Shown here one piece after another: positions 14,439-64,000 of a stretch of DNA of 64,000 nucleotides. Numbering within the stretch: the stretch's first letter is position 1; every line of letters begins with the position of its first letter. The notes beneath the pieces were generated by a model. It did no database searches. It saw only the letters and a list, made by a program, of their open reading frames with translations, and was not told the origin of the DNA. A program made the position numbers and the translations under genes. This stretch comes from Bacteroidota bacterium. GTDB taxonomy: Bacteria > Bacteroidota > Bacteroidia > 2-12-FULL-35-15. Location: assembly GCA_947449315.1 (NCBI GenBank), contig CANFRC010000009.1, forward strand, positions 71,157-135,156. Reading direction: 5' to 3'.

Positions 14439-14468
14439 AACTATTTGTCACTAATTAGAATTTGAATA

Positions 14469-15548
14469 TTATAATTTAGAATTTTTTGATCGCAATAAAT
14501 GATCTACAAGAACTAATGCCGCCATTGCCTCTACTATAGGAACAGCTCTGGGCAATACGCAAGGATCATGCCGACCTTTACCAGTCATTTCAACTGCTTC
14601 CCCGTTCGCATTAACCGTATTTTGTTTTTGCATAATAGTTGCAACGGGTTTGAAGGCTACACGAAAATAGATATCATCTCCATTACTTATTCCACCTTGT
14701 ATTCCACCTGAATGATTTGTTTTTGTTTTGATAGCATTGCTTTCCGAAACGAACGCATCATTATGCAGTGATCCATTCATTTTTACTCCTTCAAATCCAC
14801 TTCCATATTCAAAACCTTTTACAGCATTGATACTTAGCATTGCTTTACCCATATCCGCATGTAATTTATCGAAAACAGGTTCTCCTAATCCTACAGGAAC
14901 TCCTTTTGCCACACATGAAATTATTCCTCCGATTGTATCACCAGCTTTACGAACCTGCTCAATCTTCTGAATCATTGTTTCGGCAAGTAGAACATCCGGA
15001 CAACGAACAGGATTCGAATCAATTAAATTAAAATCCAAATCATGATAATTTTTCAATAATTTAATATCGCCAACTTGAGATGTATAGGCGTTAACGGAAA
15101 TTCCGTAATGCTTTAAAATGAGTTTAGCAATAGCGCCCGCCACTACTCTACTTACTGTTTCACGGGCAGAAGAACGTCCGCCACCTCGATGATCCCGCAT
15201 TCCATATTTTGCTTCATAGGTATAATCAGCATGGGAAGGTCGGTATACATCTATATTGTGTTCATAATCTTTCGATTTTTGATTTTCATTGCGAACAATA
15301 AAACCAATTGGAGTTCCCGTTGTCTTTCCTTCGAAAATTCCGGAAAGAAATTCCACTTTGTCACCTTCTTTACGTTGAGTAACAATAGAAGACTGACCAG
15401 GACGTCTTCTATCTAATTCAGATTGGATAAATTCTTGATCGATAACGAGTGCGGCAGGACAACCATCAATAATACCACCCAGCGCTTCGCCATGCGATTC
15501 GCCGAATGTAGTAAGGGTAAATATTTTTCCGAAAGTATTGCCAGCCAT
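14469..15548 (-). CDS. aroC: chorismate synthase
   Basis: [20 protein letters not shown]…[10 protein letters not shown]… canonical AroC motifs. Confidence 0.9.
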
Positions 15549-15604
15549 AAAATAGTATTATAAAACAGTCAAAATTAATGAATTATCGGGAGGAAACTTC
15601 CGCT

Positions 15605-16678: not shown

Positions 16679-16807
16679 AGGATAGAAGTGAATTACAATC
16701 CTAACAAATATAATGAATTAATAACTGTTTTTTTGTTCGTTCAAAAAAATAAAAAATCATCGGATAATACCTAGTAAATTCTTATCTTTCGACCTAATTG
16801 TCTTTGC

Positions 16808-18061: not shown

Positions 18062-18066
18062 CGCAT

Positions 18067-19749
18067 ATGAATCAATTAATCGAATGTGTTCCGAATTTTT
18101 CTGAAGGACACGACATGAACATCATTCATCAAATTACAACTGAAATTGAATCTGTTGAGGGTGTAAAATTATTAAATGTAGATCCGGGCAAAGCAACGAA
18201 CAGAACTGTAGTCACCTTTGTCGGAAATCCCGATGCTGTTATTCAAGCAGCATTTCTAGCAATAAAAAAAGCAGGTGAATTGATCGATATGAGCAAACAT
18301 AAAGGCGAACACCCACGAATGGGTGCTACCGATGTATGTCCGCTAATTCCAATCGCAGGAATCACCATGGAAGAAACGGCCGAGTATGCAAAAAAACTAG
18401 GTGCCAGAGTTGGAAAAGAACTAAGCATTCCTGTTTATCTCTATGAAGCGGCACAAACAGATAAAAAGCGTAATAATTTATCTGTAATTCGGGCAGGGGA
18501 ATACGAAGGTTTTTTCAAAAAAATAAAACTACCAGAATGGAAACCAGATTTCGGTCCTGCTGAACATTCTGTAAAATCAGGCTCAACCGTTATTGGGGCG
18601 CGTGACTTTCTAGTTGCATATAACGTAAATTTAAATACCACTTCAACCCGAAGAGCTAATTCAATTGCATTTGATGTTCGTGAAGCCGGTCGCGTAAAAC
18701 GCGAAGGAAACCCGGTAACTGGCAAAATTGTAATCGATGAAAAAGGAAACAATGTAAACATTCCTGGATCTTTAAAATCTGTAAAAGCGATTGGTTGGTA
18801 TATTGAAGAATATGGAATTGCACAAATTTCCATGAACTTAACGAATATCAATATCACATCTGTTCATAAGGCTTTTGATGAAGTATGTTCCAAAGCAAAC
18901 GAACGTGGGATCAGGGTAACAGGTTCAGAGTTGGTGGGATTGGTACCATTGAAATCAATGCTGGATGCCGGAAAATACTTTTTAGAAAAACAAAATCGTT
19001 CTATCGGTGTATCAGAAAAGGAACTAATTAAAATTGCCGTAAAATCACTTGGTTTGGATGAGTTATCTCCGTTTAAGCCCGAAGAACGCATTATTGAGTA
19101 CCTGTTAAAAAATAATTCAGAATCACGATTAATAAAAATGGATCTTGTTGAATTTGCTAATGAAACAGCAAGTGAGAGCCCCGCTCCCGGTGGAGGTTCT
19201 ATCGCTGCTTATATTGGTTCTCTTGGCATTTCTCTAGGAACAATGGTTGCTAACCTTTCTTCTCACAAACCAGGATGGGATGATCGTTGGAAAGAATTTT
19301 CCGATTGGGCAGAACGTGGTCAGTATTATAAAAATGAATTATTAAAATTAGTAGATGAAGACACAAATGCATTCAACAAGATCATGACAGCATTTGGATT
19401 ACCAAAAGGAACTGATGAAGAGAAAAAATCCAGAACATCAGCCATACAAGAAGCCACAAAATATGCCACAGAAGTACCTTTCAAGGTGATGCAATTGTGT
19501 TATGATTCTATGGAAGTAATAAAAGCAATGGCAGAAATAGGAAACCCTAATTCTGTAACCGACGCTGGCGTTGGCGCATTATGCGCAAGGTCTGCTGTAA
19601 TGGGAGCCTTTCTTAATGTAAAAATAAATGCTGGAGGATTAACCGATAAAGCATTTTCACAGAACATTATTGACCAAGGGAACGTATTAGAAGAAAAAAC
19701 AAAAGCGCTGGAAACAGAGATCTTGCAGATCGTTAATTCTAAAATTTAG
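18067..19749 (+). CDS. bifunctional glutamate formimidoyltransferase / formimidoyltetrahydrofolate cyclodeaminase
   Basis: N-terminal MNQLIECVPNFSEG…HPRMGATDVCP (formiminotransferase) plus a C-terminal ~200-aa cyclodeaminase domain. 560 aa fits fused FTCD. Confidence 0.8.
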   Translation: MNQLIECVPNFSEGHDMNIIHQITTEIESVEGVKLLNVDPGKATNRTVVTFVGNPDAVIQAAFLAIKKAGELIDMSKHKGEHPRMGATDVCPLIPIAGITMEETAEYAKKLGARVGKELSIPVYLYEAAQTDKKRNNLSVIRAGEYEGFFKKIKLPEWKPDFGPAEHSVKSGSTVIGARDFLVAYNVNLNTTSTRRANSIAFDVREAGRVKREGNPVTGKIVIDEKGNNVNIPGSLKSVKAIGWYIEEYGIAQISMNLTNINITSVHKAFDEVCSKANERGIRVTGSELVGLVPLKSMLDAGKYFLEKQNRSIGVSEKELIKIAVKSLGLDELSPFKPEERIIEYLLKNNSESRLIKMDLVEFANETASESPAPGGGSIAAYIGSLGISLGTMVANLSSHKPGWDDRWKEFSDWAERGQYYKNELLKLVDEDTNAFNKIMTAFGLPKGTDEEKKSRTSAIQEATKYATEVPFKVMQLCYDSMEVIKAMAEIGNPNSVTDAGVGALCARSAVMGAFLNVKINAGGLTDKAFSQNIIDQGNVLEEKTKALETEILQIVNSKI

Positions 19750-49523: not shown

Positions 49524-49613
49524 TGGAGAGATGCCTGAGTGGCCGAAAGGAACAGTTTGCTAAACTGTCGTACTGGGAAACCGGTACCGAGGGTTCGAAT
49601 CCCTCTCTCTCCG
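49524..49613 (+). tRNA. tRNA-Ser (anticodon GCT), long variable arm
   Basis: GGAGAGA…TCTCTCC acceptor stem, D-loop AGTGGCCGAA, anticodon stem-loop ACAGT-TTGCTAA-ACTGT, long extra arm, T-arm GGTTCGAATCC. Confidence 0.85.
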
Positions 49614-49628
49614 CTGAAAAATTACAAA

Positions 49629-49668
49629 AGATCTGCTCTGATTATCAGGGCAGATCTTTTTGTTTTTA
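49629..49668 (+). terminator. hairpin plus T-run after tRNA-Ser
   Basis: agatctgctctga-ttat-cagggcagatct followed by tttttgttttt. Confidence 0.4.
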
Positions 49669-49890
49669 GCAATGACTAACCCTTGAATTTATCTCACTAA
49701 TTTTTATTTTGGGGATCAATAGCAATAAATACCTGTGCATTGCTTTCATTGGTATTGTTTGCGATCAAACGTGAATGAGATAAATTATGGTAAATAGTCA
49801 ATAGGAATTATAAACTTTTTTATTAAAATCTTTGCAGAATAAAAAATAATGGTACATTTGCATCCGCATTTATAGTTCTTTATAGTAGTT

Positions 49891-49964
49891 CGGGGCGTAG
49901 CGTAGTTGGTTATCGCGCCTGGTTTGGGACCAGGAGGTCGCAAGTTCGAGTCTTGCCGCCCCGA
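49891..49964 (+). tRNA. tRNA-Pro (anticodon TGG)
   Basis: CGGGGCG…CGCCCCG acceptor stem, anticodon stem-loop CCTGG-TTTGGGA-CCAGG, T-arm GGTCGCAAGTTCGAGTCTTGCC. Confidence 0.85.
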
Positions 49965-50048
49965 CAAAACAAGTGGTTAATGGTTATTTGTTATATTTTA
50001 CTTATAACATATTATCGTTAACCATTTTTGTTAGTAGCCTTTTAAAAT

Positions 50049-50122
50049 GATCCCATAGCTCAGCTGGATAGAGCAACGGTTTTCTAAACCGTAGGCCTTT
50101 GGTTCGAATCCAAATGGGATCA
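50049..50122 (+). tRNA. tRNA-Arg (anticodon TCT)
   Basis: GATCCCA…TGGGATC acceptor stem, D-arm TAGCTCAGCTGGATAGAGCA, anticodon loop TTTCTAA, T-arm GGTTCGAATCC. Confidence 0.85.
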
Positions 50123-50180
50123 CTAAAGCATACTGATAATCAATTAGTTAGCTGTTTGTATTGACAATATTATTGACAAA

Positions 50181-50398: not shown

Positions 50399-50651
50399 GA
50401 ATGTTTGTAATCATCAATGCTAATCGCTGATCATCACTTTTCATCGTTTTTAATCGCATTTCAGCGATTAACATCGCTGTTCATCGCTGAGAAGCGCATC
50501 TCATTTCTCAAAAAACTACCCGCTATCGACTCATCATCAATTGAAAAAACTGCTCTTTTTTAGAGTTTTACAGGCTTTATTAAGTTACACAAATCTGTAA
50601 CGTAATAAACATTTATACATTTTACAATACATTGTAAAATGCTGAATTTAG

Positions 50652-51072: not shown

Positions 51073-52227
51073 GTGAATATATCTAAAGATTTAATTTATC
51101 TTGATAATAATTCGACAACAAAAGTTGATGATAGGGTTATTGATGCAATGATTCCAATCATGACAGAATGCTATGGAAATCCCTCTAGCTCTCACCCATT
51201 TGGAAAAGAAATTCATCAATTAATTATTGAAGCCAGAAAAAACGTTTCAAATCTAATTAGTTGCGAACCTAAAGAAATAATATTCACATCCGGAGCAACT
51301 GAAGCTATTAACTTAGCTTTAAAAGGAATTGCCCAATCCTCTCATTTCAATAGAAAAAAAATAGTAACTTTCTCAACGGAACACAAAGCCGTTTTAGATA
51401 CTTGTAAAATCCTTGAAAACCAAGGATTTGAAATTGTAATCCTTCCTGTAAATAATGATGGTACCGTTGACATAGCTTTATTATCCAATGTTGTCGATCA
51501 AGAAACACTTCTTGTTGCTGCAATGTTCGTAAATAACGAAACTGGAGTTATTCATGATATTAAAAAAATGGCTGAAATTACCCATAATATGGGAGCAATT
51601 TTCTTTTGTGATGGCACACAGGCTGTAGGAAAAATTAAAGTAGACATAAATGAACTCGATGTTGATATGCTATGCTTTTCAGGTCACAAGTTTCACGGAC
51701 CAAAAGGAATTGGAGCATTATATGTAAACAATTCTATAAAAAATAAAATTCAAGCACAACAAACTGGTGGTGGACAGGAATCCGGATTAAGAAGTGGAAC
51801 TTCCAATACTGGAGGAATTGTTGGTTTAGGTGAAGCATGCAAAATAGCTGTAATAGAAATAAAAGAAACTGAAGTCAAAGTCGCAAAGCTAAGAGACCAA
51901 TTAGAGTCTGAACTTTTACAAATTCCAGGGACATTTATTAATGGTAATATAAAAAATCGAATTTATAACACTACTAACATTTGCTTCCCTAAAAATGACG
52001 CAAATGTAATAATAGGAAGATTAAAGAAAATTTCTGTAAGTAATGGTTCTGCATGTACATCTTTAATTGTTGAACCATCACATGTTTTATCTGCGATGGG
52101 TTTAGATAATGATTTGGCCTTTGCCTCCCTTCGCTTCTCATTAAGTAGATACAACAATATAAATGAAGTAAAAAAAGTTGTTAAAGAATTAAGTAATATT
52201 CTGATTCCAAATTTAATTATAAATTAA
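51073..52227 (+). CDS. cysteine desulfurase (class V aminotransferase, IscS/NifS/DndA/SspA-like); GTG start
   Basis: LIYLDNNSTTKVDDRV (IscS N-terminus), PLP-lysine motif FSGHKFHGPKGIGALYV, catalytic Cys loop SNGSACTS. 384 aa. Confidence 0.85.
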   Translation: MNISKDLIYLDNNSTTKVDDRVIDAMIPIMTECYGNPSSSHPFGKEIHQLIIEARKNVSNLISCEPKEIIFTSGATEAINLALKGIAQSSHFNRKKIVTFSTEHKAVLDTCKILENQGFEIVILPVNNDGTVDIALLSNVVDQETLLVAAMFVNNETGVIHDIKKMAEITHNMGAIFFCDGTQAVGKIKVDINELDVDMLCFSGHKFHGPKGIGALYVNNSIKNKIQAQQTGGGQESGLRSGTSNTGGIVGLGEACKIAVIEIKETEVKVAKLRDQLESELLQIPGTFINGNIKNRIYNTTNICFPKNDANVIIGRLKKISVSNGSACTSLIVEPSHVLSAMGLDNDLAFASLRFSLSRYNNINEVKKVVKELSNILIPNLIIN

Positions 52228-52231
52228 AAAA

Positions 52232-52447
52232 ATGGAACAGACTCTAGCAAATACCACAAATTGGCTAAAAAGTAAAGAGGTTGAAAGTAAATTGAAAGTT
52301 TATAATAGTCATTTAATGCATTTAAGACTTGAAAGTAAATTAAGTTATACCAAAAACGGGAATTCATTTTTCTACAAAAAAAGTGATGTTAAGAAAATTA
52401 AAGCTATTTTTAAAAACTCAATAATTTCAAAGAGTAGAAATAAATAG
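52232..52447 (+). CDS. small DNA-binding protein, HTH_17 (excisionase/AlpA/MerR-like) candidate
   Basis: 71 aa. …LKSKEVESKLKVYNSHLMHLRLESKLSYTKNGNSFFYKKSDVKKI fits the helix-turn-helix … wing … F..DV pattern of HTH_17. It starts 4 nt after the desulfurase stop. Confidence 0.35.
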   Translation: MEQTLANTTNWLKSKEVESKLKVYNSHLMHLRLESKLSYTKNGNSFFYKKSDVKKIKAIFKNSIISKSRNK

Positions 52448-52534
52448 AGAAAATGAATTATAAAATTGAGCCTCAAAAAAGGAAAGTTGATCTTTTTAAG
52501 GAGCTTAACAGAGTTTTAGAAGAAATTGAAAATT

Positions 52535-54115
52535 ATGATAAATGATATTAAAGAATTAATTTGTGATTTACCTGATGGAAAAAAAAGAAATTATTTAGGT
52601 CAACTTTTCGTACAGTCGCTGAGTAATTATTACTCCAATTTTGGAGTTGATGAAGAAATTGATTTAGATGAACTTCTTGTTAGAAACATCAAAGAAATTA
52701 TTATTGAGGATGAATTATTGAAAGACTTAAAATTATTCGTTTCAAAAAAATTAGAAGAACTTTTTAATCTAAATTCTAATGATATAAGTGAACTTAGAAT
52801 TAAAGATCTTCGAGCAAAACTGATTTCACATTTTGAAATAAAATTTGAAATCGATCAAACAGCTGATAGAATATATGAGAATAATTTAATCTGTAAATTT
52901 CCACTTCATGATTTTCAAGATCGAATTAGGAGAAAAGTCATAAATTTAATTTTCGATAATCAGAAACGATTTTTGATTCATATGCCGACTGGTTCTGGTA
53001 AAACAAGAACCGCAGCAGAGGTTATTTTAGATTTTATTCGATTATCTTCAAGCAAATCCTTGTTAAATGATAAAATAAAAATTCTATGGATAGCGCAATC
53101 CAGCGAACTTTGTTATCAAGCTTATGAAACAGTAAAACTTATAATAGAAAATAAAGGAACTCAAAATATAAGTTTGGCAAATTATTATGGTAATCAAGAG
53201 TTGCCAAATGATATAGAAAACAAATCAGCTGTAATTTTCTGCGGTATTCAAAAATTACTTTTACATTATACAGATGATATTTGGAGAAATATAAAAAATA
53301 ATACTTATTTAGTTATCGTTGATGAAGCGCATAGATCGGTAGCAAATCAATGGGTACAAGCATTAGATTATTTTGTGTCAGATCAAAGCGTATATTTATT
53401 AGGATTAACTGCGACACCTGGACTGGGTACAGTTAATGAAGATAGAACATTTTTGCTATCTACTTATTACCAAAGTAATAAGATAACAATAACGGATTCA
53501 AATTATGAAGAAATACCAAATCCAATTAATGAGTTAGTAAAATTAAAATTTTTGGCTCAAATAAAACGAATTGATATTGATTCGAAAGTTGTTATTGAAA
53601 ATGGTGTAGACACCTCTGACGAAAATGAAATTAAATTTTCAAATAATACTTTAGATGAATTGACTGCGAATCAACAACGAAATGCTTCAATTATTAATAT
53701 AATAAAAGAAAATCATTTAAAGAAGAAAAAAATGCTGGTTTTCACTTGTGGGTTAGAGCATAATCGTATTTTAAAATCCATATTAACAGATTTGAATATA
53801 GTTTCAGAAACTATTGATCAAAGTACTACAAATAGAAATTCTATAATTGATAGATTTAAAGATAGCAATAGTGGTCTCGATATTTTACTAAATTTTGGCA
53901 TTTTAACTACTGGATTTGACGCTCCTAAAACCGATGTATGTATCATTGCTAGACCTATTTCTTCAATTGTAATGTATTCACAAATGGTTGGAAGAATATT
54001 GCGAGGGCCAAAAAATAATGGAAACGATGAAAATACACTCTACACTATAAAAGACAACCTTGGTCACGGTGACTATGATAATCTATTTAATTCATTTAAT
54101 AATTTTTATAAATAA
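52535..54115 (+). CDS. superfamily-2 DEAD/DEAH-type helicase (restriction Res-subunit-like) with ~130-aa N-terminal domain of unknown function. The ORF is open from TTG 52526.
   Basis: Motif I HMPTGSGKTRTAA, motif II LVIVDEAHRS, motif III LGLTATPG, motif VI YSQMVGRILRG. Confidence 0.8.
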   Translation: MINDIKELICDLPDGKKRNYLGQLFVQSLSNYYSNFGVDEEIDLDELLVRNIKEIIIEDELLKDLKLFVSKKLEELFNLNSNDISELRIKDLRAKLISHFEIKFEIDQTADRIYENNLICKFPLHDFQDRIRRKVINLIFDNQKRFLIHMPTGSGKTRTAAEVILDFIRLSSSKSLLNDKIKILWIAQSSELCYQAYETVKLIIENKGTQNISLANYYGNQELPNDIENKSAVIFCGIQKLLLHYTDDIWRNIKNNTYLVIVDEAHRSVANQWVQALDYFVSDQSVYLLGLTATPGLGTVNEDRTFLLSTYYQSNKITITDSNYEEIPNPINELVKLKFLAQIKRIDIDSKVVIENGVDTSDENEIKFSNNTLDELTANQQRNASIINIIKENHLKKKKMLVFTCGLEHNRILKSILTDLNIVSETIDQSTTNRNSIIDRFKDSNSGLDILLNFGILTTGFDAPKTDVCIIARPISSIVMYSQMVGRILRGPKNNGNDENTLYTIKDNLGHGDYDNLFNSFNNFYK

Positions 54116-54121
54116 TCAACT

Positions 54122-55918
54122 ATGAGTAATAAAAGACCACTAATGGGTACAGATAATATCCTTGGGTTACAAGATAACGGATATAAAAGTACTGTTTCTG
54201 CTATTTCTGAAATAATTGATAATAGTATTCAAGCACATGCAACAAATGTTGACATTGTTATTATTAGAAATACTACTCGAGAATCGGATGAAATTGACGA
54301 AATTATGATAATTGATGACGGAGATGGAATGGATCAAAATATTTTTGACAAGGCTCTTCAAATGAGCTCAGGAAGTAGATCAAAAGCAAAATCAGGCTTA
54401 GGTAAATATGGCCAAGGCTTACCTAATTCATCTATTTCTCAAACAAAAAGAGTCGAAGTTTATACCATGCAAAAGGGGAAAATACTTTATAATCATATTG
54501 ATTTAAATGAAATTTACGAAAGTCAACAACCCTATTTACCAGATACCGAAAAAAGAAATGAAATTGATATTCCTATTTTCAAATCTAAAAAATTAAAAGC
54601 ACCTGAAACTGGTACAATAGTAAGATGGGTTAATCCTAATAAAGTAAAACCTAAAACTGCTAGAACATTAGCAACACATATTGAACAAATAGCTGGTCGA
54701 ACATTCAGATATTTTATTAATGGCTTTAAAGACAATGATGGAAAGATTTATAAATGTAATATAAACATTTTAGTCTTTGATTTTAATGGTAAAAATTATG
54801 AACCTGATAATTTTATTACAAAGAAAAATATTCTACCATTTGACCCTATGTTTCTTATGCCAGCAACGCAAATGAATAAATTGTTTCCAGAGAGCAGTCA
54901 TCCAACTAGTAGTATATTTGATGAAAAAATCAAGAAAGAATTTAAAGTTATATACAATAATGAAAAAGTAAAAACAATTGTTGAAATTAAATTATCCTAT
55001 TGCAATAAAAAAGAACGTGATAGATATGGACGAAATGCCGGTGGTGAACCTTTTGGAAAAAAGTACTTGAATAGAAATTTGATTGGTACATCTGGATACA
55101 ATAATATTTCAATAATTCGCGCCGGAAGAGAAATTGATTACGGAAGTTTTGGTTTTATTTTAGATGCTTCTGAATCAACAAATAGATGGTGGTCTGCTGA
55201 AATTTTAGTTGAGCCAGTTATAGATTCTATTATTGGTATCGATAATAAAAAACAACAAGCTTCACAAATTCAATTTGTCGACAATCAGACATCTGAGGAT
55301 TATGACCATCATGAAATTATTCGATGGATTTCTACATTTCTTACGCAAAACATTAAAAGTGTTAAGACAATTATCGAATTGCAAAATGCGTCCTCTAATG
55401 GTACAACTGCTAAGGGGAAAGGAAAAGGACCAAAACTTCCTCCCGGGGGAGGAACTGAGCCAGGAAACTCAGGAAATCCAGGCGCTAATCCTGACGATGA
55501 TGAAATGAAAAAAGTTAAGAAGGAATTATTTGAATGGATAAAAGAAAGATACCCAAAACTGAAAGATGATGAAATATGGGAAATCGTAGATTACGCATTC
55601 AGTATAAAGGATTGTCATATTTTTATTAAATCAGATTTAGGAGATACACAGCTATACAGTTATAAGGTTTTTGGCACTAAAGTTTTGATAGAAATTAATT
55701 ATACTCATAGTTTTTATAAAAGATTTATTCAAGGGTTTGAAGAAGACCCAAGTCAAGAAAAATCATTACGTTCAATCAGATTATTGATAGGTGCCATGGT
55801 TAATGCAGAAATTGTGAATGGTACTGATGAAAAAGAAATACTTAAAGATAGACGGAATATTAAAAATAGGATGTCAGAATGTTTAGAGGATTATATCGAG
55901 GATTTATACGCAAGTTAA
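54122..55918 (+). CDS. GHKL-superfamily ATPase (HATPase_c; prokaryotic MORC / MutL-like) with long C-terminal extension
   Basis: Bergerat-fold boxes: N box EIIDNSIQAHA, G1 box IIDDGDGMD, G2 box GKYGQGL. 598 aa. It starts 7 nt after the helicase stop. Confidence 0.8.
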   Translation: MSNKRPLMGTDNILGLQDNGYKSTVSAISEIIDNSIQAHATNVDIVIIRNTTRESDEIDEIMIIDDGDGMDQNIFDKALQMSSGSRSKAKSGLGKYGQGLPNSSISQTKRVEVYTMQKGKILYNHIDLNEIYESQQPYLPDTEKRNEIDIPIFKSKKLKAPETGTIVRWVNPNKVKPKTARTLATHIEQIAGRTFRYFINGFKDNDGKIYKCNINILVFDFNGKNYEPDNFITKKNILPFDPMFLMPATQMNKLFPESSHPTSSIFDEKIKKEFKVIYNNEKVKTIVEIKLSYCNKKERDRYGRNAGGEPFGKKYLNRNLIGTSGYNNISIIRAGREIDYGSFGFILDASESTNRWWSAEILVEPVIDSIIGIDNKKQQASQIQFVDNQTSEDYDHHEIIRWISTFLTQNIKSVKTIIELQNASSNGTTAKGKGKGPKLPPGGGTEPGNSGNPGANPDDDEMKKVKKELFEWIKERYPKLKDDEIWEIVDYAFSIKDCHIFIKSDLGDTQLYSYKVFGTKVLIEINYTHSFYKRFIQGFEEDPSQEKSLRSIRLLIGAMVNAEIVNGTDEKEILKDRRNIKNRMSECLEDYIEDLYAS

Positions 55919-56220
55919 ATTAACTAATTAATATGATTTTCAAATCTGATTTGGCTTTTGATATTAAAAAAAAGTAAGAGCAGTAATTATTTAACTAACT
56001 TAAAAATCTTGCAGTAGAATATTATAATTTTATTTTGTAAAAATTATTTGGATTAATTCACGAATAAAAAATGTAATACTTATTAGATAACTGCTTTAAT
56101 TTATTAAAAACTGTATTTTCAGCAATTTCATCTTTTATTTCCTTTAGGAAACACTAGAGATAAATCATTTCTCACTATATATAGTGTAAAGTTATTATTA
56201 TTCACTAATGTTTTACAATT

Positions 56221-57183
56221 ATGCTATATAGAAGTGGAGAAAATTTAGAACATGGCGCAATTAATTTCGTAAATAATTGCGAAACAGTAACATTATATTC
56301 AGCATATCTTAAATTGGATGAATTAAAGAAAATAAATGAACATAAAAAAATAAAGCAAATTATTGTCAGATGGGAAATTGAAGATCTTTGTAGAAAAATT
56401 TCAGATATCGAACTATTTCTATACTGCAAAGAAAATAGTATTGTATTATACCGAAATACTCGCATTCACTTAAAAGCCTTTTGGGATAATAAATCAGATG
56501 TGTTTTTTGGTTCTGCAAATGTTACCAACAAAGGCCTTGGCGAAAACGGGAACTTCAATTTTGAATTAAATGGCGCATTAAAGGGAATAAGTTTTGCTGA
56601 CCAAACTTATTTCAATAAATTAATATTAGACAGCGAATATGTTACAGACGACCTTTATAATAAGTTATTGGACTTAATTGAAAGTGTTGTTTTGCCAACA
56701 TTTGATTTCCCAAAACTTCCAACTCCTCCACCAACAGTAGAATATTTTTTAATTAATCAGCTTCCAATGACAACGAGTCCTGAATTACTTTTTGAAATCT
56801 ATAGTGGACAGATGAAAAATGAAATAGAAATGAATTGTGCAGCACATGACTTAGAGTTGTATCGCATACCAAAAGGACTAACTAAAACTGTTTTTTTTGA
56901 CCAATTAAAACAAACATTCAACAATCATCCTTTTATATTGGAATTTAAAGTTACAATTAAAAATTCTGTCGATGAATTAAACCGAACTGATAGGAATGGA
57001 AGTATGACTTTTGGATCTGTTAAACGATGGTTTCAAGATAAAACTACTACTGTTCCCACACCCCGCTCATTTGAATTGAATGATTATGTAAATATATTAT
57101 ACGATTGGATCTGCCATTTCGATAATTGTTACAGCCATTCCATTCCAGGAGGGTACTCTCAGGTAATTAAGTATATTTGCTAA
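56221..57183 (+). CDS. phospholipase D-family nuclease, single HKD motif (Nuc/BfiI-like)
   Basis: HLKAFWDNKSDVFFGSANVTNKG matches HxK(x)3-4D(x)6GSxN. Only one copy is present, implying dimeric use as in Nuc. The C-terminal ~150 aa are unassigned. Confidence 0.65.
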   Translation: MLYRSGENLEHGAINFVNNCETVTLYSAYLKLDELKKINEHKKIKQIIVRWEIEDLCRKISDIELFLYCKENSIVLYRNTRIHLKAFWDNKSDVFFGSANVTNKGLGENGNFNFELNGALKGISFADQTYFNKLILDSEYVTDDLYNKLLDLIESVVLPTFDFPKLPTPPPTVEYFLINQLPMTTSPELLFEIYSGQMKNEIEMNCAAHDLELYRIPKGLTKTVFFDQLKQTFNNHPFILEFKVTIKNSVDELNRTDRNGSMTFGSVKRWFQDKTTTVPTPRSFELNDYVNILYDWICHFDNCYSHSIPGGYSQVIKYIC

Positions 57184-57262
57184 TGAAAATTTAGTATAAT
57201 AAATCAAAATGAACCTAATATAGTTACAAAATTGCGATTTACAAATATTTAAAAACATCAAC

Positions 57263-58837
57263 ATGAAAATTGAAGCTTTAAAAAATCAAATTGTTTCAGG
57301 AGGTAGAACATATCCGATATTCATTGCTTTTATAGAAGCGGAGTTAGTATTAAAATACTCTGTTGTTCCAAATTTTAGTAATGATGATCATGAAGAGGCA
57401 ATTGCGGTGAATATAAAAAGTAAACCTGTAAAAAAATGGCAGCGCCCTCTAATTCAATCGAAAGTTGATGAACTGATTAAAACGTTTAATAATACTGGGG
57501 AATTCATGCCAAATCCTGTTCTGTTATCAGAAAATCCACTGCGAACAAGTAAATCACAAGAAAAAATTAAGGCCTACCCTAAAATTATCGGAGGGCAAAC
57601 TAGTTCTGTTTGGGAAATAAGTTTACCTGAAGAAAAAGAGGTCTTGTGGATTATTGACGGACAGCACAGAATTACAGGTTTAGGAGATGTTGATTGTAAA
57701 CAAAATTCAAATATTGTTCCGGTAGTGCTTTTATTAAACCCTGATACTGTTTTCTATACCCCCCCTGACTTTGCAAAAATATTTGCGCAAGTTTCAACGA
57801 CAGCTTCAGAATTAAGACCACTTCATAAAGAATGGTTGCAGTATTCTTTTGAACTGGCAAAATACGAAGGGAAGCAGTGGCAGGATTCAATGTCTACTGT
57901 GGTTGAGCTATGTGCCCACACAGAATTTATAGACCGAGGCACCACCTACCCTAATCCATATTGGGACAAAATTGTTTTTAACGATGCCAATTTAGAGAAT
58001 AATATGCGTCTAAATTGTCAAGTATTCGCAGAAATAATTCACTCAGAATATTATAATAGAAAACCAGAATACAATCATTTTGCTCCGACTGAACTAGCTG
58101 TTCTTGTTGAAAAAGCGTTCTTTCAGCTTCGTCACACAATACCAAATCCTGACCTTTCGGTGTTTTTTGGAAGCGAATCTACGATTCGTCACGTTGTTTC
58201 AATTAAGGCATATATCAGAGGCATATTAACCTATATCCTAAAATATTGCGACCCTCAAGATTCAAGCAAAACACCTGATTTGAATGCATGGAAAAATGTA
58301 TATGAAACTTTATATTTTAACAAAACTGATTTTAATTGGGCTTTACATTCTATGACTGGTGAAGCGTGGTATTCAAAGTCGGAAATTTTGGCGAATGTCG
58401 TATTTAAAGAAGCTTTTAGATCTTTGACAATCCCTGATGGTGCCGTAGATTTAACTCATTGTATTTGTCTTGGAAATAATCAATTTATAGAACTGGAATT
58501 AACAAACAATGTAGGAGTTTCTACCACAAAAAAAATCACGAGTAACACAACAGTTATAAATGACCCGGGGAATATTTCAAATATAAAAATTGTAAACAAA
58601 TCATTTAATTGCGAATTAATCAGTATCGTTGACCAAAAAACTACCCATAATTATCCTCAAAAGTTCAATATGGATTATGCGCGAAAAAATAAAGGAAAAG
58701 GAATAGATGTTCCTTTTACAAAGCCTGCAACAAAAAGTAAACCCGCATACGATACAACAAAAAACTTCAATCTTGAAGTCAAAATAACACGCTATGGCGG
58801 GGGGACTGATACAATGGTAATTAAATTTCACATTTAA
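57263..58837 (+). CDS. DGQHR-domain protein (DndB-like family), 524 aa
   Basis: Diagnostic motif VLWIIDGQHRITGL. Upstream QRPLIQSKVDEL is the DndB-type region. It is ~150 aa longer than canonical DndB, with an extra C-terminal region. Confidence 0.8.
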   Translation: MKIEALKNQIVSGGRTYPIFIAFIEAELVLKYSVVPNFSNDDHEEAIAVNIKSKPVKKWQRPLIQSKVDELIKTFNNTGEFMPNPVLLSENPLRTSKSQEKIKAYPKIIGGQTSSVWEISLPEEKEVLWIIDGQHRITGLGDVDCKQNSNIVPVVLLLNPDTVFYTPPDFAKIFAQVSTTASELRPLHKEWLQYSFELAKYEGKQWQDSMSTVVELCAHTEFIDRGTTYPNPYWDKIVFNDANLENNMRLNCQVFAEIIHSEYYNRKPEYNHFAPTELAVLVEKAFFQLRHTIPNPDLSVFFGSESTIRHVVSIKAYIRGILTYILKYCDPQDSSKTPDLNAWKNVYETLYFNKTDFNWALHSMTGEAWYSKSEILANVVFKEAFRSLTIPDGAVDLTHCICLGNNQFIELELTNNVGVSTTKKITSNTTVINDPGNISNIKIVNKSFNCELISIVDQKTTHNYPQKFNMDYARKNKGKGIDVPFTKPATKSKPAYDTTKNFNLEVKITRYGGGTDTMVIKFHI

Positions 58838-58838
58838 A

Positions 58839-59381
58839 ATGATTTTTACTGAATTAAATAATTTCAGAATCGAAATTTCTAAAAAATACGTAAATCATCT
58901 TTCTGTGTCATTTATTGTTGGATGGGAAAAATGTAGAAAATCATTAGAAACCGAAAAAGATACATATGAATTAATTTTAAAAAAATTAGCACTACTGCAT
59001 CCCGAACACTACTACTTAATTTTAAAAACTGAAACCAGTAGGATTAATAGCAAAATTGAACTAATTCAAGGAAATAGATCCTTTCCGCAGATTGATGACA
59101 CCGAAAAATGTCAATCTGAAGAACTTTGGGGGTATATTTGTCCTTTTACAATAGAAAACAAGGTTCAAGATCATGAATTTCCATACTCCTTAGGAGGCCC
59201 TACAAATAAGGCATTTAATAGAAGAATACTTTGCAGATGGCATAATATGATAAAAGCTAACGACATCCATAATTATCCCTGGGAAAAACTATTTAATCAA
59301 TATGAATATTATATAAAAACCAACAGGGTGCACTGGGTTGATGAACAATTAAATAAAATCATAAAAGAATTCAATTTGTAA
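58839..59381 (+). CDS. HNH endonuclease
   Basis: CPFTIENKVQDHEFPYSLGGPTNKAFNRRILCRWHNMIK: Cys…D-H…N…C..H-N pattern of the HNH beta-beta-alpha-Me finger. The start is 2 nt after the DGQHR gene stop, so the two are translationally coupled. Confidence 0.6.
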   Translation: MIFTELNNFRIEISKKYVNHLSVSFIVGWEKCRKSLETEKDTYELILKKLALLHPEHYYLILKTETSRINSKIELIQGNRSFPQIDDTEKCQSEELWGYICPFTIENKVQDHEFPYSLGGPTNKAFNRRILCRWHNMIKANDIHNYPWEKLFNQYEYYIKTNRVHWVDEQLNKIIKEFNL

Positions 59382-59651
59382 ATAAGTAGAAATTAAAAAA
59401 TTCTACAAAGAACTCAACAATTTTTCTAGTTCATTTTTTAACTCTTTTTCCTTTTTTCTTATTGAAACATCTATTTCAATAGGGAAAGTATGGCTCATGT
59501 ACTTTTCAATGTCTCCAATTAAGCTACCTTGAATACCATTTCTCATCTTTTTTAAAAATTGAATTCAATCTTCTAAATTATTAAAAATAATCGAAGAGGA
59601 ATGTCTTACAATCTCAAAAAAAATTTAAAAACAGGATCAAAATCGGATTTT

Positions 59652-59908
59652 TCATCCACTAAAATATTTTTTTCCAAGCGCAGCAGCAAAGCCAACTTCA
59701 AGAGTTAAACCATAACCTGAAGGATTATCCTTTTGCAATCCCAAAGAGTATATTCAATTGGAGAAAGTAATTCGTGCTCTCTTGGATTAAAAAAAACAAC
59801 ATTACTTTTACCGACATTTTTAATAACTAGAGATTGCCAATCTATGATATTCATCCCACCTGAAAGAAATATTTTAGAGTCCATCATTTTGTGTATTAAA
59901 TAAAACAA
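59652..59908 (-). pseudogene. nucleoside 2-deoxyribosyltransferase-like small gene interrupted by a +1 frameshift near 59740-59755
   Basis: Frame A (59908-59705) encodes MMDSKIFLSGGMNIIDWQ…NVVFFNPREHE (N-terminal KI(Y/F)L(A/S)G(P/G) motif). Frame B (59753-59652) encodes …SGYGLTLEVGFAAALGKKYFSG*, the D/G..(T)..E.G.A.A.GK C-terminal signature of PF05014-like proteins. The frames overlap and differ by one nucleotide. Confidence 0.35.
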
Positions 59909-60996
59909 CTAGCACAACCCGCATCATCGTCTTCTAGTATATCAATTAGAAGAGATGATTTTTTCTGTGCATTCTTTTCAGTTTTTTTTATGTAATCTTC
60001 TTTTATCTGTTGAATTCTTTCAGGCTTAATTAAATCACCTAAGGCCTCCTCACTCCATGAGTATCCAGTTTTTTCATATTCCAAAGCCTTGTTAAAAAGA
60101 TCAGGGTGCTGTTCGTAAAGCCAAACCCACTCTATTTTCTGCTGGTAAAAACAAAAATAGCATCCTGAGCGGCTTCGTGCATACTCCCCCATTTTACCGT
60201 TTACTTCAAATTTAATCTTTTTATAATACTCAGGCACTCCAACTCCACTTTCTTCTAGTATTTTAAAAATGTCACTTTTAATTAAGATATCCTCATTATC
60301 CAGCAAAGCAAAATCATTTTCCATTGCAAGAGGGTACTCTGTAGTTTTCAGAAATTGAAATACTAAATGATTAAAACCTTTGATGTCGGTATCTAAAATA
60401 GCATTCAATTTATGTTTTAAGGTAAATGAAGTGTCTATTTTCTTAGAAATTAATGCTTCAAACTTTTCTTTATTTCTGCCCCAGTATACATTTGAAAACA
60501 TCGGCATAACTTTATCTAAATTTTGATTGGATAAAACCTTAGCAATAACATCTTCACTCCAAATGTTTTTTCGAAAAGGGAAAATCGATTGAATATTTTT
60601 TTTGGTAGAAATATAACCTTCTCTTTCCTCATCACCTCTGATGCCAACGTAAGAAACTACAGGATCATTTCCAACGTATTTCTCAAAGGGGTCAAGCTTT
60701 AAGGTCTTTGTGCACCATCTAGCAGTTGCAGAAGGCAAATAACCACCATGCAACGTCAAAAAATGATCAAATGGATCAGCTTCCGAAGTCTCTCTTGTTG
60801 CCAAAAGTAAATTAATTTTGATTCCTAAATAAACCTCCAAATTTTTTATCAGTTGGTAAGTTTCGTCAAGCTCCTTTCCAGTATCACATGAATAAAACTC
60901 CAAATCAATGCTTGGATATTTTGTTTTCATATAAATAGCTAAAGCAGCACTATCTTTTCCACCTGAAATCCCTAAAACGTGTCTTGTCTTTTTCAT
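59896..60996 (-). CDS. PAPS-reductase-family PP-loop ATP pyrophosphatase (DndC/SspD/BrxP-like), 366 aa
   Basis: N-terminal PP-loop HVLGISGGKDSAA. C-terminal Cys cluster (RSGCYFCFYQ … DAGCASCFI) as in DndC-type proteins. The start ATG overlaps the upstream gene's stop (TA[A]TG). Confidence 0.8.
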   Translation of the reverse strand: MKKTRHVLGISGGKDSAALAIYMKTKYPSIDLEFYSCDTGKELDETYQLIKNLEVYLGIKINLLLATRETSEADPFDHFLTLHGGYLPSATARWCTKTLKLDPFEKYVGNDPVVSYVGIRGDEEREGYISTKKNIQSIFPFRKNIWSEDVIAKVLSNQNLDKVMPMFSNVYWGRNKEKFEALISKKIDTSFTLKHKLNAILDTDIKGFNHLVFQFLKTTEYPLAMENDFALLDNEDILIKSDIFKILEESGVGVPEYYKKIKFEVNGKMGEYARSRSGCYFCFYQQKIEWVWLYEQHPDLFNKALEYEKTGYSWSEEALGDLIKPERIQQIKEDYIKKTEKNAQKKSSLLIDILEDDDAGCASCFI

Positions 60997-63900
60997 TATT
61001 TCAATAAATCCTTCAATAGATTAACCAATGCAGCAATATTCAATGTTTTATCTGAAGAAAGTTTCTTTTTTAATTGTTCCTTAATTTCATTTATCTCCAA
61101 CTCTTTCTTCTTAGGTATTTTTACGATTTTAGGTGCAATTCCACTAAAAAACGAGTCAATTTTAACGGCTATAACTTCTTCCTTATCTTCATCAATATCA
61201 GTTTTAGAAATATTAGTCAACCCATCAAGTTGTATGATACAGTTTTTAAATTTTTCATACAAACTAATCTCGTCCTCATCTTTAAAGGTATCTAACGTTT
61301 TACCAACAGCAATTTGAGCAAGTGAGTTCAACCAAATCTTCTTATCGTCAATTTTCGAATTTATTCGTTGAACAAATACTTTCTGATCAGCTAATAGCAA
61401 ATGTTGCTTTAACTTTTTAAATCTCTGCTGCAGCTTTTCTTTGTAATCTTCAAAATCTAATTTATCATATACAATTTCATTACAAATAAATTCTTCAAAA
61501 CGCTCAACTAATAAATCATAACATGATCTTAACTCACGAATTGTGCTCTGCAAAGTATTTGTGTATTTCTGTAACTTCTTTTTATCCTTTTGTAGTTCTA
61601 AAACCGTAAAGTCTAAAGCTGCAGGAAATGCATTAAAAAATGTATCTTCTGGGTCTTTAGAGGAAGCTATAGAAGTCCTGATTTTAATAGCTTCTTTTGA
61701 AAGACGATTGGTTTGTTTTGAATATTCAGGCAATTGCTTGTAAAAAGTAAGAAATGGCTTTATTGTTTCAATAAATGACTTATTATCAATCTTTACCCCA
61801 GTAGCTTGATTCAAAAAAGTTCTATAACTATTGAATATATCTAATTTGACACCTTCAATATCGAATGCTTTTATTTTAAATTTCGCAGGTAACTTAGAAA
61901 CTAATTCTAAATTTTCATCAGAAAGATTAGGAACGTACCCTGTTTCTCCAAAAAGCGCAAAATCGTCACGTTTAATAAACAGGAAAGTTGGAATCCAAAA
62001 ATCAATTAAGCCTTGTTTGAGCTTAAATGGCCTTTTGCTTAATATATCGACAAGCTCATCAATAGACCTAGGTTCAATTTTCGTACTTGCAATAAACTTT
62101 TCTGATGTGTTCCAAAGATCCAAAAATGAAGAAGAATTTTCAACACTTGGTACATCAGTACTTCCATCTCTAATTGGAGAGATACCATTTTCTTTCATTA
62201 GAGAAAGAAAAATAGTTTTCTCTGGCGGGAATTTATCGTTTTCAAAACCAAGATTCTCCTTATCCCAATTATTTGCTAAAGCTTTAAAATAATTTTTCTT
62301 AGCCGAATGAATAGATGGAGAAATCCTATGTTTATTCATCAATTCATTAACAAATTCTGGAGTAGAACTATAAACCGAATCGCAAATTTTAGATAAAAAT
62401 TTATTAAATAATTTTTTGTCTGTTATTGTTTTCACTTCCCCGTCCTTCCAAAACCATCTAACGTCAAGATTGTTACTGAATAGATTAGCAACAATGTATT
62501 CATTTAATATTTTTTTCTGATGTGAAAGAATACTCTCTAACTCACGTTTAGCAACTTTATCATCGACATTTTCTTCAATTACTTTTTGAATTTTTTCAAT
62601 TTCGAAAAGCAAATCTTTAATTTCATTTGCATTTCTGTAGAAACCATAAATAACAGCATCTTGTTGATTAATAGCTATTTTTTCGAGTTCATTTAATTTA
62701 AGCTTTGAATTAAATATTAGATTTATATAACCATCTATTTCACCCGTAGGAATTTTTTCTATGGGATACTCTGAAATAACAAATTCGAAAAATCGAGGAG
62801 TACCCTTTTTATAGGAATGCTGCTTTGCCAATATTGGAGCAAAAGAAAAATATTTATTTAACAAAGTAGTTATATCAGTTACCTCAGATACTTTATTTGC
62901 AGCTTCAATAAGAGCTGTTTGTATATCCAAATCTGTACCTTCAAACAAAATATATCTTTGTGAATGGGCTCTATATAGTATAATTTTTTTCTGCTCAAGC
63001 TTTTGAATTAGTTCTCTACCGTTCTTTATTCCACAAGAAGTGATTAAATATTCATCTAGAAAAACAAGGTCTAATTTTGACCCACTAGCCGAAAAAATGT
63101 TAAGCAACCCTATTGTCTTAATAATTTTTGAATACTCAACTATAGAATCATCAAATGCTCTTTCAACTTCTTCAATAGCTGTTCTTATAGAAGACCATGC
63201 AGAAAAATCAGAATTATATTTTGAAGTTAAGTACGAATAAAAATTAAAAATTAAATAATCGTATACACAAGATAAATTATAAAAAGGATTGTCTTTTTTA
63301 TTAAACTTAGCTAAACCAGTATTATCTGTAGATTCTAGAAAAGAAAACAATGACCTTTCATTTTGCCCATATCTTTGAAGTGATAGGGTCAGTACATTAG
63401 CAGAAAGTATATCCAGAGGATATAATTTACTAGCAATTTGTTGTAGAAAATCCTTGTTAAAACTAAATGCTTTTGTATTTATATTAAGCTTTAATGACCT
63501 TTCTATAATAGCCTTTCCAGCTATTGCTTCAACCGTTTCACCAATATGTTCAGAAGCCAAGAACAGCAATTGTTCCACTGGCTCATTAAAAGTAATTTCC
63601 TTAAATCGTCCCTTAACTTTCGTCCACTCTTGCTTCTGTTGTCCTTGAAGTGAAAACGCATACGATTCAAAACTTTGATGAACGGTAGTAATAAAAACGA
63701 TATTATACTTTGGGTCATTGCAAAATTCAGCCAATTGTTGAATAAAATACAATTCATCTTCTGGACTATTTTTTGAAGCATACTCTAAAAATTTGCCAAA
63801 TTCATCAATAAGAAGGAAAAGGATTTTATTTCCCTTTCCCAATGAGTGATATCGATTGAAGATTTCAGAAAAAATATTTTCTTGTTTATTTTTGTTTGAT

Positions 63901-64000
63901 GTTATCTTAAGAAGATCCGCAAAAGTTTGTATAACACTGTTATATTCCCCAATCACCTTAAGGAAATCAACTTTAGGATTATCTATAAAATTAACATTGA
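60996..64000 (-). CDS. large (>1000 aa) ATPase-like protein, N-terminus lies beyond the window end. BrxC/PglY (DUF499) or SspC-like is a candidate family.
   Basis: The minus-strand frame is open from 60996 to the window edge with no stop; the listed GTG at 63956 is not the true start. A Walker-B-like GNKILFLLIDEFGKFLEY lies near the visible N-terminus. The remainder is a long, mostly alpha-helical K/E/L/I-rich body. No P-loop is visible in the window; it is presumably upstream. Confidence 0.55.
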   Translation of the reverse strand, partial: NVNFIDNPKVDFLKVIGEYNSVIQTFADLLKITSNKNKQENIFSEIFNRYHSLGKGNKILFLLIDEFGKFLEYASKNSPEDELYFIQQLAEFCNDPKYNIVFITTVHQSFESYAFSLQGQQKQEWTKVKGRFKEITFNEPVEQLLFLASEHIGETVEAIAGKAIIERSLKLNINTKAFSFNKDFLQQIASKLYPLDILSANVLTLSLQRYGQNERSLFSFLESTDNTGLAKFNKKDNPFYNLSCVYDYLIFNFYSYLTSKYNSDFSAWSSIRTAIEEVERAFDDSIVEYSKIIKTIGLLNIFSASGSKLDLVFLDEYLITSCGIKNGRELIQKLEQKKIILYRAHSQRYILFEGTDLDIQTALIEAANKVSEVTDITTLLNKYFSFAPILAKQHSYKKGTPRFFEFVISEYPIEKIPTGEIDGYINLIFNSKLKLNELEKIAINQQDAVIYGFYRNANEIKDLLFEIEKIQKVIEENVDDKVAKRELESILSHQKKILNEYIVANLFSNNLDVRWFWKDGEVKTITDKKLFNKFLSKICDSVYSSTPEFVNELMNKHRISPSIHSAKKNYFKALANNWDKENLGFENDKFPPEKTIFLSLMKENGISPIRDGSTDVPSVENSSSFLDLWNTSEKFIASTKIEPRSIDELVDILSKRPFKLKQGLIDFWIPTFLFIKRDDFALFGETGYVPNLSDENLELVSKLPAKFKIKAFDIEGVKLDIFNSYRTFLNQATGVKIDNKSFIETIKPFLTFYKQLPEYSKQTNRLSKEAIKIRTSIASSKDPEDTFFNAFPAALDFTVLELQKDKKKLQKYTNTLQSTIRELRSCYDLLVERFEEFICNEIVYDKLDFEDYKEKLQQRFKKLKQHLLLADQKVFVQRINSKIDDKKIWLNSLAQIAVGKTLDTFKDEDEISLYEKFKNCIIQLDGLTNISKTDIDEDKEEVIAVKIDSFFSGIAPKIVKIPKKKELEINEIKEQLKKKLSSDKTLNIAALVNLLKDLLK

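Follow-up and report, generated by a model that had tools for sequence, protein, structure and literature searches.

Genes and Features of the Island

The 64,000 nt stretch of Bacteroidota bacterium contig CANFRC010000009.1 analysed here (hereafter the window) ends in a genomic island in which genes of an Ssp-type DNA phosphorothioate (PT) modification system stand next to five cargo genes. The cargo consists of a superfamily 2 (SF2) helicase, a MORC-like GHKL ATPase and a nuclease with a single HKD motif, together referred to below as the trio, followed by a DGQHR protein and a small HNH nuclease. Seven plus-strand genes occupy positions 51073-59381, and the minus-strand genes sspC and sspD converge on them, along with the remnant of a deoxyribosyltransferase-like gene (Table 1). 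The G+C content, 0.33-0.39 in the preceding sequence, drops to 0.27-0.33 at about 51 kb and stays in that range as far as base 64000. A first-pass annotation, made from the sequence alone, had listed the elements of this region as a possible defense island, and all of them were recovered at or near the coordinates it had assigned, by open reading frame (ORF) prediction, Pfam and PADLOC models, tblastn and ARAGORN. Related loci are designated by L numbers.

Table 1. Coordinates of genes and other features in and beside the island (window positions; aa, amino acids).
Feature	Position	Strand	Evidence
tRNA-Ser(gct), tRNA-Pro(tgg), tRNA-Arg(tct) cluster	49525..50123	+	ARAGORN; Rfam tRNA 57-72 bits
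mnmE 3'-terminal remnant, about 59 codons, ending in FCIGK and a stop codon	50664..50843	+	Pfam MnmE_helical 8.6e-10, profile positions 157-211 of 211
sspA, cysteine desulfurase, first gene of the plus-strand operon	51073..52227	+	PADLOC SspA 5.1e-149
Conserved 71-aa protein after sspA	52232..52447	+	ORF; kept next to sspA in relatives
SF2 helicase/translocase, XPB/RadD-like	52526..54115	+	Pfam ResIII 1.7e-28, Helicase_C 1.2e-09
MORC-like GHKL ATPase	54122..55918	+	Pfam HATPase_c_3 7.4e-24; contiguous with the helicase gene
Single-HKD (phospholipase D (PLD) superfamily) nuclease, C-terminal winged-helix-like domain	56221..57183	+	
DGQHR protein, 524 aa: ParB/Srx-fold N-terminal domain, helical middle, beta-sandwich C-terminus	57263..58837	+	
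Small stand-alone HNH (His-Me finger) nuclease, 180 aa	58839..59381	+	Begins 1 nt past the stop codon of the DGQHR gene
Frameshifted nucleoside 2-deoxyribosyltransferase-like remnant, downstream of sspD	59547..59884	-	tblastn
sspD, PP-loop ATP pyrophosphatase / PAPS-reductase-like sulfur-transfer enzyme	59896..60996	-	PADLOC SspD 1.1e-89; PAPS_reduct 3.7e-08
sspC, large ATPase, 5' end beyond the window	60996..64000	-	PADLOC SspC E=0, 1429.8 bits

The Modification Core

The core of the island is a canonical, already catalogued Ssp-type phosphorothioation module and is not novel, because SspA, SspC and SspD are all high-scoring members of catalogued Ssp families. SspA also matches Aminotran_5 (4.9e-84, Pfam) and DndA (1.7e-147, PADLOC), and both the lysine motif for pyridoxal phosphate (SGHKFHGPKG) and the active-site cysteine loop (SNGSACTS) can be read in its translation. 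SspD carries the PP-loop motif SGGKDS and two C-terminal cysteine motifs, CYFCF and GCASCF, and has thousands of homologues at 70-94% identity, mostly in Bacteroidota. The sspC gene overlaps the start of sspD by 1 nt, and its reading frame is still open at base 64000. The match to the SspC profile spans positions 77-1038 of 1039, and about 73 N-terminal residues lie outside the window, including the Walker A motif, which by alignment corresponds to GTYGTGKSS in a 1072-aa relative; the Walker B motif (LLIDEF) is visible. The relatives of SspC are 1066-1079 aa long. These data agree with the earlier description of an ATPase of more than 1000 aa that is coupled to the PP-loop gene, and with the suggestion that the two resemble an SspC-SspD pair.

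Two other assignments of the core were rejected. For Dnd (DndABCDE), neither an ABC/SMC ATPase nor DndE is present in the region, and the DndC model matches SspD at 7e-5 or weaker. For BREX type 4, the PADLOC matches to BrxC (1.6e-66, on SspC) and BrxP (1.4e-6, on SspD) fall far below the Ssp scores, and no PglZ or BrxL was found in the window or in the 10-kb flanks of its relatives.

In loci with an SspD 80-81% identical to that of the window, a DUF4007 gene lies directly upstream of sspC, and two of these products were scored as SspB by PADLOC (1e-83 and 2e-80). The same position is occupied by SspB (DUF4007) in all related loci with sufficient flank (29 of the 80 HKD-family loci introduced below). 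Given this arrangement in the relatives, sspB is expected just outside the window, and almost certainly lies just beyond base 64000.

The family membership of the three proteins bears out the view of the first-pass annotation that the island holds a sulfur-dependent DNA backbone modification module. It does not sustain the further claim of a novel modification system without known Dnd or Ssp content, since SspA, SspC and SspD are catalogued as Ssp in PADLOC. The absence of DndD and DndE, which had been taken as a sign of novelty, is simply what separates Ssp from Dnd. Among the hallmarks of phosphorothioation that had been named, the desulfurase and the PP-loop protein are present as SspA and SspD, but the DGQHR protein does not fill a DndB/SspB slot, the true SspB being the DUF4007 protein encoded upstream of sspC.

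Proteins of the Helicase-GHKL-HKD Trio

The first cargo protein has the features of an SF2 translocase, with matches in the PDB to RadD (1.8e-16) and XPB (8e-08). Its Q motif and motifs I (MPTGxGKT), II (DEAH), III (TATP) and VI (QxxGRxxR) are at least 90% conserved among 46 homologues. The best PDB match of the GHKL ATPase is human MORC2 (1.6e-4), and 45 homologues retain its motifs for ATP binding (E30/N34, DxGxG and GxxGxG). The third protein has one HxK...GSxN motif per chain within a PLD fold, and these residues are invariant across its homologues. The fold matches those of Nuc, NucT, SauUSI and BfiI, and a comparison of the HKD profile with PDB sequences gave no significant match. Proteins with one HKD motif per chain are expected to act as dimers, as with Nuc and BfiI.

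An additional motif was seen in the C-terminal part of the GHKL ATPase, where N526, H529 and Y532 (residues 526-532, window positions 55697-55717) are conserved in the same 45 homologues. Some paraMORC families have conserved histidine motifs in their C-terminal extensions, which have been regarded as possible nuclease sites (Iyer et al., PMC2292703).

Linkage of the Trio to Ssp Genes

A scan based on the GHKL ATPase, covering species-representative genomes (GTDB), returned five relatives that were 48-64% identical by tblastn: a Flavobacterium metagenome-assembled genome (MAG), a Flavobacteriales MAG, a Cyclobacteriaceae, a Saprospirales and the gammaproteobacterium Ignatzschineria. The helicase gene adjoins the GHKL gene in all five and an HKD gene is present in three, while SspD and SspC are found next door in each of the four loci that have enough flanking sequence. 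Locus L009 represents a minimal form, in which sspA-helicase-GHKL-HKD converges on sspD-sspC-sspB and nothing else is present. In the Ignatzschineria locus (L008, Ignatzschineria sp. F8392, 8381-18137), helicase-GHKL converges on sspD and the HKD gene is missing; SspD was matched there as two overlapping segments, which may reflect a frameshift or strong divergence.

At least 504 proteins belong to the HKD family, and hardly any of them is named. A metagenome scan with the HKD alignment gave 104 relatives; 80 loci were retained from these and scored by tblastn. Both the helicase and the GHKL ATPase were present in 39 of the 42 loci with at least 4 kb upstream of the HKD gene. SspC/D were detected in 37 of the 42 loci of at least 8 kb, or in 40 if fragments at contig edges are counted. 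The five negative loci comprise three with SspD edge fragments, one that is truncated on the relevant side, and a single true exception (L094). Where both flanks were available the complete set was found in 23 of 25 loci. The convergent gap between sspD and the HKD gene has a median of 212 bp and is shorter than 50 bp in 22 of 45 loci, and in 36 loci sspA heads the helicase-GHKL-HKD operon. The linkage holds across phyla and at HKD identities of 40-87%. Linkage this close to obligate, with a modification gene placed in the operon of the effectors, favors functional coupling over mere co-residence in an island.

The same data bear on whether the trio could instead be a self-contained defense system (MORC-type, Type IV-like or an ATP-dependent nuclease) that shares a hotspot with Ssp and has no need of the PT mark. 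Operons of MORC/paraMORC, helicase and nuclease genes are widespread without PT genes (PMC2292703), the closest structural match, SauUSI, is a stand-alone modification-dependent enzyme, and the island does swap cargo, with Pbe-like genes in L001-L006 and DUF262 proteins and others in the slot. Against this stand the near-obligate association of this HKD family with sspBCD in several phyla, the first place of the modification gene sspA in the same operon, and the short distance of sspD from the nuclease gene, which amounts to tens of bases in half of the loci. We regard this explanation as improbable.

In a subset of loci a protein of 605-790 aa is encoded between sspA and the helicase gene (L013, 3233-5605; L016, 1720-3537; homologues in L024, L027, L032, L038, L076 and L098). 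It has no Pfam match, is absent from the window, and may be an optional fourth component of the trio.

An Exchangeable Cargo Slot

The closest relatives of the island (L001-L006) have the same convergent layout, and their sspA (67-71% identity), small ORF (48-62%), sspC (79%, encoding a 1072-aa protein) and sspD (81%) are all similar to those of the window, but no match to the five middle genes of the window was found in them. Their middle part (e.g., L001, 12271-20479) instead encodes a PbeA (PADLOC E=0), a PbeC-like ABC ATPase, small proteins and a 411-aa DndB. The combination of a shared frame with different middle genes indicates that the space between sspA and sspD is an exchangeable effector slot. 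In sister Ssp loci, the position between the HKD gene and sspD is filled not by the DGQHR-HNH pair but by a DUF262/GmrSD_N protein, of the same domain type as SspE but not scored as SspE by PADLOC.

The content of the slot is also relevant to a role of the trio within the modification machinery, in which it would open or scan DNA for SspBCD or process the nicks made by SspB. Co-transcription with sspA would fit such a role, and further DNA-handling proteins are conceivable in a pathway that already employs a nickase (SspB) and an ATPase; moreover, PbeABCD-type systems have been reported to act without visible degradation of viral DNA (PMC6459918). We nevertheless consider it very unlikely, given that IscS/SspA and SspBCD suffice for PT in heterologous hosts (PMC8092258), that the trio is missing entirely from close relatives whose SspC and SspD are 79-81% identical, and that the invariant nuclease site of the HKD protein is typical of effectors.

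The gene order of the window had been thought to be unique. The full layout, including DGQHR-HNH, recurs in L016/L017 and in L046, and the layout without this pair is found in dozens of metagenomic loci. The proposal that the helicase, GHKL, PLD/HKD and HNH proteins form the effector side of the island has gained plausibility, as the comparative genomics is strong for both the trio and the DGQHR-HNH pair.

Two side observations were made on the cargo of relatives. The pairing of Ssp with Pbe in L001-L006 may be unreported, PbeABCD having been described with Dnd or methylase genes (PMC10853773, PMC6459918). Directly after sspD in L005 (10384-13225) and L006 (6277-9118) are three co-directional genes, encoding proteins of 376, 203 and 364 aa; none has a PADLOC match, the 364-aa protein gives a faint match to AAA_22, and the set is a further candidate for an Ssp-linked module.

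The DGQHR-HNH Pair

The structure model of the DGQHR protein (pLDDT 92.2) places the DGQHR motif within the ParB/Srx-fold domain, and both this motif and a WQRP motif are invariant in the family (55 homologues for DGQHR). The protein matches TIGR03187 at 7.2e-12 and 45.6 bits, under the cut-off of 58.85, and TIGR04172 at 32.3 against a cut-off of 450. No Pfam DndB match was obtained for the window protein, four of its homologues are annotated with Pfam DndB, and its profile found no significant match among PDB sequences. A scan of viral contigs with the DGQHR alignment returned only three weak, partial matches, with no sign of a phage-borne pair.

The HNH gene is translationally coupled to that for the DGQHR protein. 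Its family, with 190 cluster representatives that are all about 160-180 aa long, has the invariant residues C91, C101, D111, H112, N127, C132, H135, N136 and K139, among them a DH...N...HN motif and a CCCH set. Most members match Pfam HNH_5 (44 of 50) or HNH (33 of 50), the window protein itself having no Pfam match at a threshold of 0.1, and the family profile matches the HNH endonuclease of PDB entry 4h9d at 0.016.

In L016/L017 the DGQHR and HNH proteins are 54% and 49% identical to those of the window, and the island has the order sspA, helicase, GHKL, HKD, DGQHR, HNH, converging on sspD-sspC-sspB; the pair is also present in L046. It is found, in addition, with 35-37% identity, next to DndBCDE(A) clusters of Psychromonas marina, an Alteromonas and two MAGs (loci that include L102/103 and L104), with identities of 37% (DGQHR) and 40% (HNH) in the Psychromonas Dnd island. 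The pair is, therefore, a PT-associated module that is found with both Ssp and Dnd. A sulfur-binding domain of the ScoMcrA type is encoded immediately upstream of the DGQHR gene in two of the loci linked to Dnd, alone in L018 (9284-9859) and fused to HNH_2 in L104 (8994-9866), so that a known PT reader shares the neighborhood of the pair there.

These neighborhoods also speak to another reading of the DGQHR protein, in which it would resemble DndB and negatively regulate the expression of PT genes or the density of PT. DndB, the founding member of the DGQHR proteins, has been described as a repressor of dnd transcription that is modulated by ATP (as cited in PMC10853773); the window protein matches both DGQHR and DndB-related models, and four homologues have the Pfam DndB annotation mentioned above. 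The window protein, however, exceeds DndB in length by about 160 aa, and has a helical middle and a beta-sandwich C-terminus that are distinct; its gene is always followed by the HNH gene, and Dnd loci carry it in addition to a bona fide DndB. A regulatory function of this kind is accordingly rather doubtful.

A relationship of the pair to SspE by descent, as a split form of that protein, was rejected. An hhalign comparison of the DGQHR protein with the DUF262 proteins of sister loci aligned just 18 columns (E 0.036, probability 1.4%), restricted to the DGQ(H/Q)R motif, and no match was found between the HNH protein and either the C-terminal parts of the sister DUF262 proteins or DUF1524.

Left Border and Remaining Features

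The tRNA cluster forms the left-hand context of the island and lies outside the system proper. Between it and sspA is the mnmE remnant, which is on the plus strand and points toward the Ssp island. No full-length mnmE is present among the neighboring ORFs, which encode an oligopeptide ABC transporter and a Mur ligase. The first-pass annotation had pointed to signs of horizontal acquisition; of these, the low G+C content, tRNA cluster and mnmE remnant are indeed present, but a simple duplication of the mnmE 3' end by the island as an att site does not fit, because integration into the 3' end would place the element on the other side of the remnant. An insertion or deletion of earlier date probably took place at this hotspot. 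No integrase is visible in the part of the island that lies within the window. The non-coding interval between tRNA-Arg and the mnmE remnant includes a degenerate array with a 10-nt period (50405-50503), made up of roughly 6-10 units rich in ATCGCT/TCATC and also carrying overlapping 19-nt inverted repeats; it may be an array that is iteron-like or binds protein, or else decayed sequence.

The 71-aa protein encoded after sspA is 44-62% identical to the 63-68 aa products of genes in the same position in L001, L005 and L013. It has no match in Pfam, PADLOC or NCBIfam, and may be a putative regulator of the excisionase/MerR-like helix-turn-helix type. A 30-codon ORF (52453-52545) lies between its gene and that of the helicase, overlapping the start of the latter. 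A metagenomic contig of identical sequence (L106) has a gene call for this ORF, which is probably spurious. At the other end of the cargo, the deoxyribosyltransferase-like remnant was detected with the intact 128-aa Nuc_deoxyri_tr2 protein of L001 as the tblastn query, and appears as two segments in different frames (59884-59738 and 59738-59547). Since the gene is broken in the window and intact after sspD in L001, it points to ongoing decay of the cargo.

A scan for promoters and terminators performed no better than on shuffled sequences, Bacteroidota promoters being outside its coverage. Look-ups of exact proteins for sequence past the window end returned nothing for SspD and the DGQHR protein, and for the HKD and GHKL proteins only contigs of 1.9 kb and 6.3 kb.

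Comparison with Known Systems

The HMM checks that the first-pass annotation had recommended (Pfam and PADLOC) placed the core among catalogued Ssp systems and matched the cargo trio to no catalogued system; as a system, the trio is absent from PADLOC v2. The modification chemistry and the ordinary Ssp genes are thus already known, and what is new is the cargo trio as a conserved Ssp partner. Matches of the cargo to PADLOC models are weak: PbeA (7e-20, helicase core only), MzaB (1e-10), ZacB (2.8e-5) and DpdB (9e-7). Assignments of the cargo to SspE, SspFGH, DndFGH, Dpd, DISARM or BREX were rejected, the PADLOC matches being weak or partial. A search of the literature covered, comparative-genomics papers on PT and BREX systems included, found no link of Ssp to a combination of GHKL/MORC, helicase and HKD proteins, although a mention in the supplementary data of the founding Ssp paper is possible.

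Among PT systems, the SspABCD-SspE system of Vibrio cyclitrophicus FF75 and E. coli 3234/A (Xiong et al. 2020, as cited in PMC8092258 and PMC10853773) shares with the window the SspA, SspC and SspD families, the sspC-sspD operon structure and an accessory nuclease module located downstream. SspE combines a ParB/Srx-fold sensor with a His-Me nuclease, as does DGQHR-HNH, but in the window the sensor and nuclease are two proteins, and these are of the DGQHR and HNH types and not DUF262 and DUF1524. No window protein gave a PADLOC SspE or a Pfam GmrSD_N/DUF262 match. The published system also lacks the helicase-GHKL-HKD trio, which is the main conserved partner in the window. A three-gene, ATPase-containing restriction module is likewise attached to sspBCD in the SspABCD-SspFGH system of Vibrio anguillarum FF-93, and has been proposed to damage non-PT DNA (PMC8092258). 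SspF (a Walker A protein), SspG and SspH (with an FtsK/SpoIIIE-like C-terminus) have other folds than the trio, and none of the three has a PADLOC match on any window protein.

The DndCDEA-PbeABCD system (PMC6459918; reinterpreted in PMC10853773) is also PT-coupled and employs an SF2 helicase and an HKD nuclease, fused in PbeA. The window helicase corresponds to PbeA over the helicase core only and the HKD domain is a separate protein, unlike in L001, where a true PbeA occupies the same island position. Nor does the window have the CxC ABC ATPase (PbeC) or the DndE-like PbeD, a GHKL ATPase being present instead.

Outside the PT systems, the closest arrangement is that of the MORC/paraMORC-SFII helicase-nuclease operons (Iyer, Abhiman and Aravind 2008, PMC2292703), in which a GHKL ATPase is accompanied by a Rad25/XPB-like SFII helicase and a nuclease, occasionally of the HKD type. 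The window has the same combination of intact GHKL motifs with an adjacent SFII helicase and a nuclease gene. These operons were predicted to be similar to restriction-modification systems, with a mechanism of DNA looping and translocation (PMC2292703). The paper ties them to DNA methylases and does not contain the word phosphorothioate, whereas the partner in the window is SspABCD. SauUSI (PDB 7clg), an ATP-dependent Type IV restriction enzyme, shows only 15-19% identity, and differs in being a single polypeptide that cuts modified DNA, with neither a modification partner nor a GHKL ATPase.

Proposed Mechanism

SspA, SspC and SspD belong to their respective Ssp families, the cargo proteins have recognizable folds and catalytic motifs, and the linkage between the two sets of genes is conserved. 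We propose that the island consists of an Ssp modification system, a restriction arm formed by the trio that cuts unmarked DNA, and DGQHR-HNH as an accessory effector, and give this reading a probability of about 0.65. SspA would supply persulfide sulfur, and SspD and SspC, together with SspB (a DUF4007 DNA-binding protein and nickase), would write single-strand PT marks on host DNA. The trio, transcribed with sspA, would act as an ATP-driven restriction arm. Its HKD protein is predicted to dimerise and to bind DNA through the winged-helix domain. Translocation would be the task of the helicase, and clamping or looping of the DNA that of the GHKL dimer; the outcome would be cleavage of DNA that is without the Ssp mark. 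In this capacity the trio may represent a split, GHKL-augmented relative of the HKD-helicase nucleases of the SauUSI/PbeA type. The DGQHR-HNH pair, located between the HKD gene and sspD, might provide a second nicking activity, with the NTPase-like DGQHR protein as a nucleoside triphosphate-gated sensor that controls a His-Me nuclease in an SspE- or DndI-like manner.

Several points weigh against this proposal. We infer all of the enzymatic activities, the direction of PT dependence and the anti-phage function from genomics and structure prediction, and genes can be co-located in defense islands without being functionally coupled. The sequence is compatible with PT blocking the nucleases, as for SspFGH and DndFGH, or with their activation by PT, as for SspE and PbeABCD. 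All five cargo proteins stay below the curated cut-offs of the defense-system library, the apparent likeness of DGQHR-HNH to SspE lies in fold class and gene position only, and the predicted sspB and the right border of the island fall beyond the window end.

Implications for Ssp Systems

To our knowledge, phosphorothioation is the only natural modification of the DNA backbone, and we know of just two characterized restriction partners of Ssp, SspE and SspFGH. A survey of 2,678 sspBCD loci found that 83.9% are without both sspE and sspFGH, and its authors explicitly offered 'more diversified restriction counterparts' as a possible reason (Wang et al. 2021, PMC8092258). This figure leaves two options: either most Ssp systems are orphan epigenetic systems, or there are effectors yet to be recognized. 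The island described here and the more than 100 related loci provide a concrete set of candidate effectors with clear catalytic residues.

We give roughly even odds to the broader view that the trio is a third class of PT-coupled restriction beside SspE and SspFGH, the prevalent partner of SspABCD in aquatic Bacteroidota that would explain part of the approximately 84% of sspBCD loci that seem to be 'orphans', and that DGQHR-HNH is a portable, PT-linked effector for both single-strand (Ssp) and double-strand (Dnd) PT. If true, this would be the first link of MORC-type GHKL ATPases to modification of the DNA backbone, and the presence of DGQHR-HNH beside both Ssp and Dnd could reveal how PT is read irrespective of its strandedness and sequence motif. 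The trio offers a candidate answer to the question of why most Ssp systems appear to be without a restriction partner.

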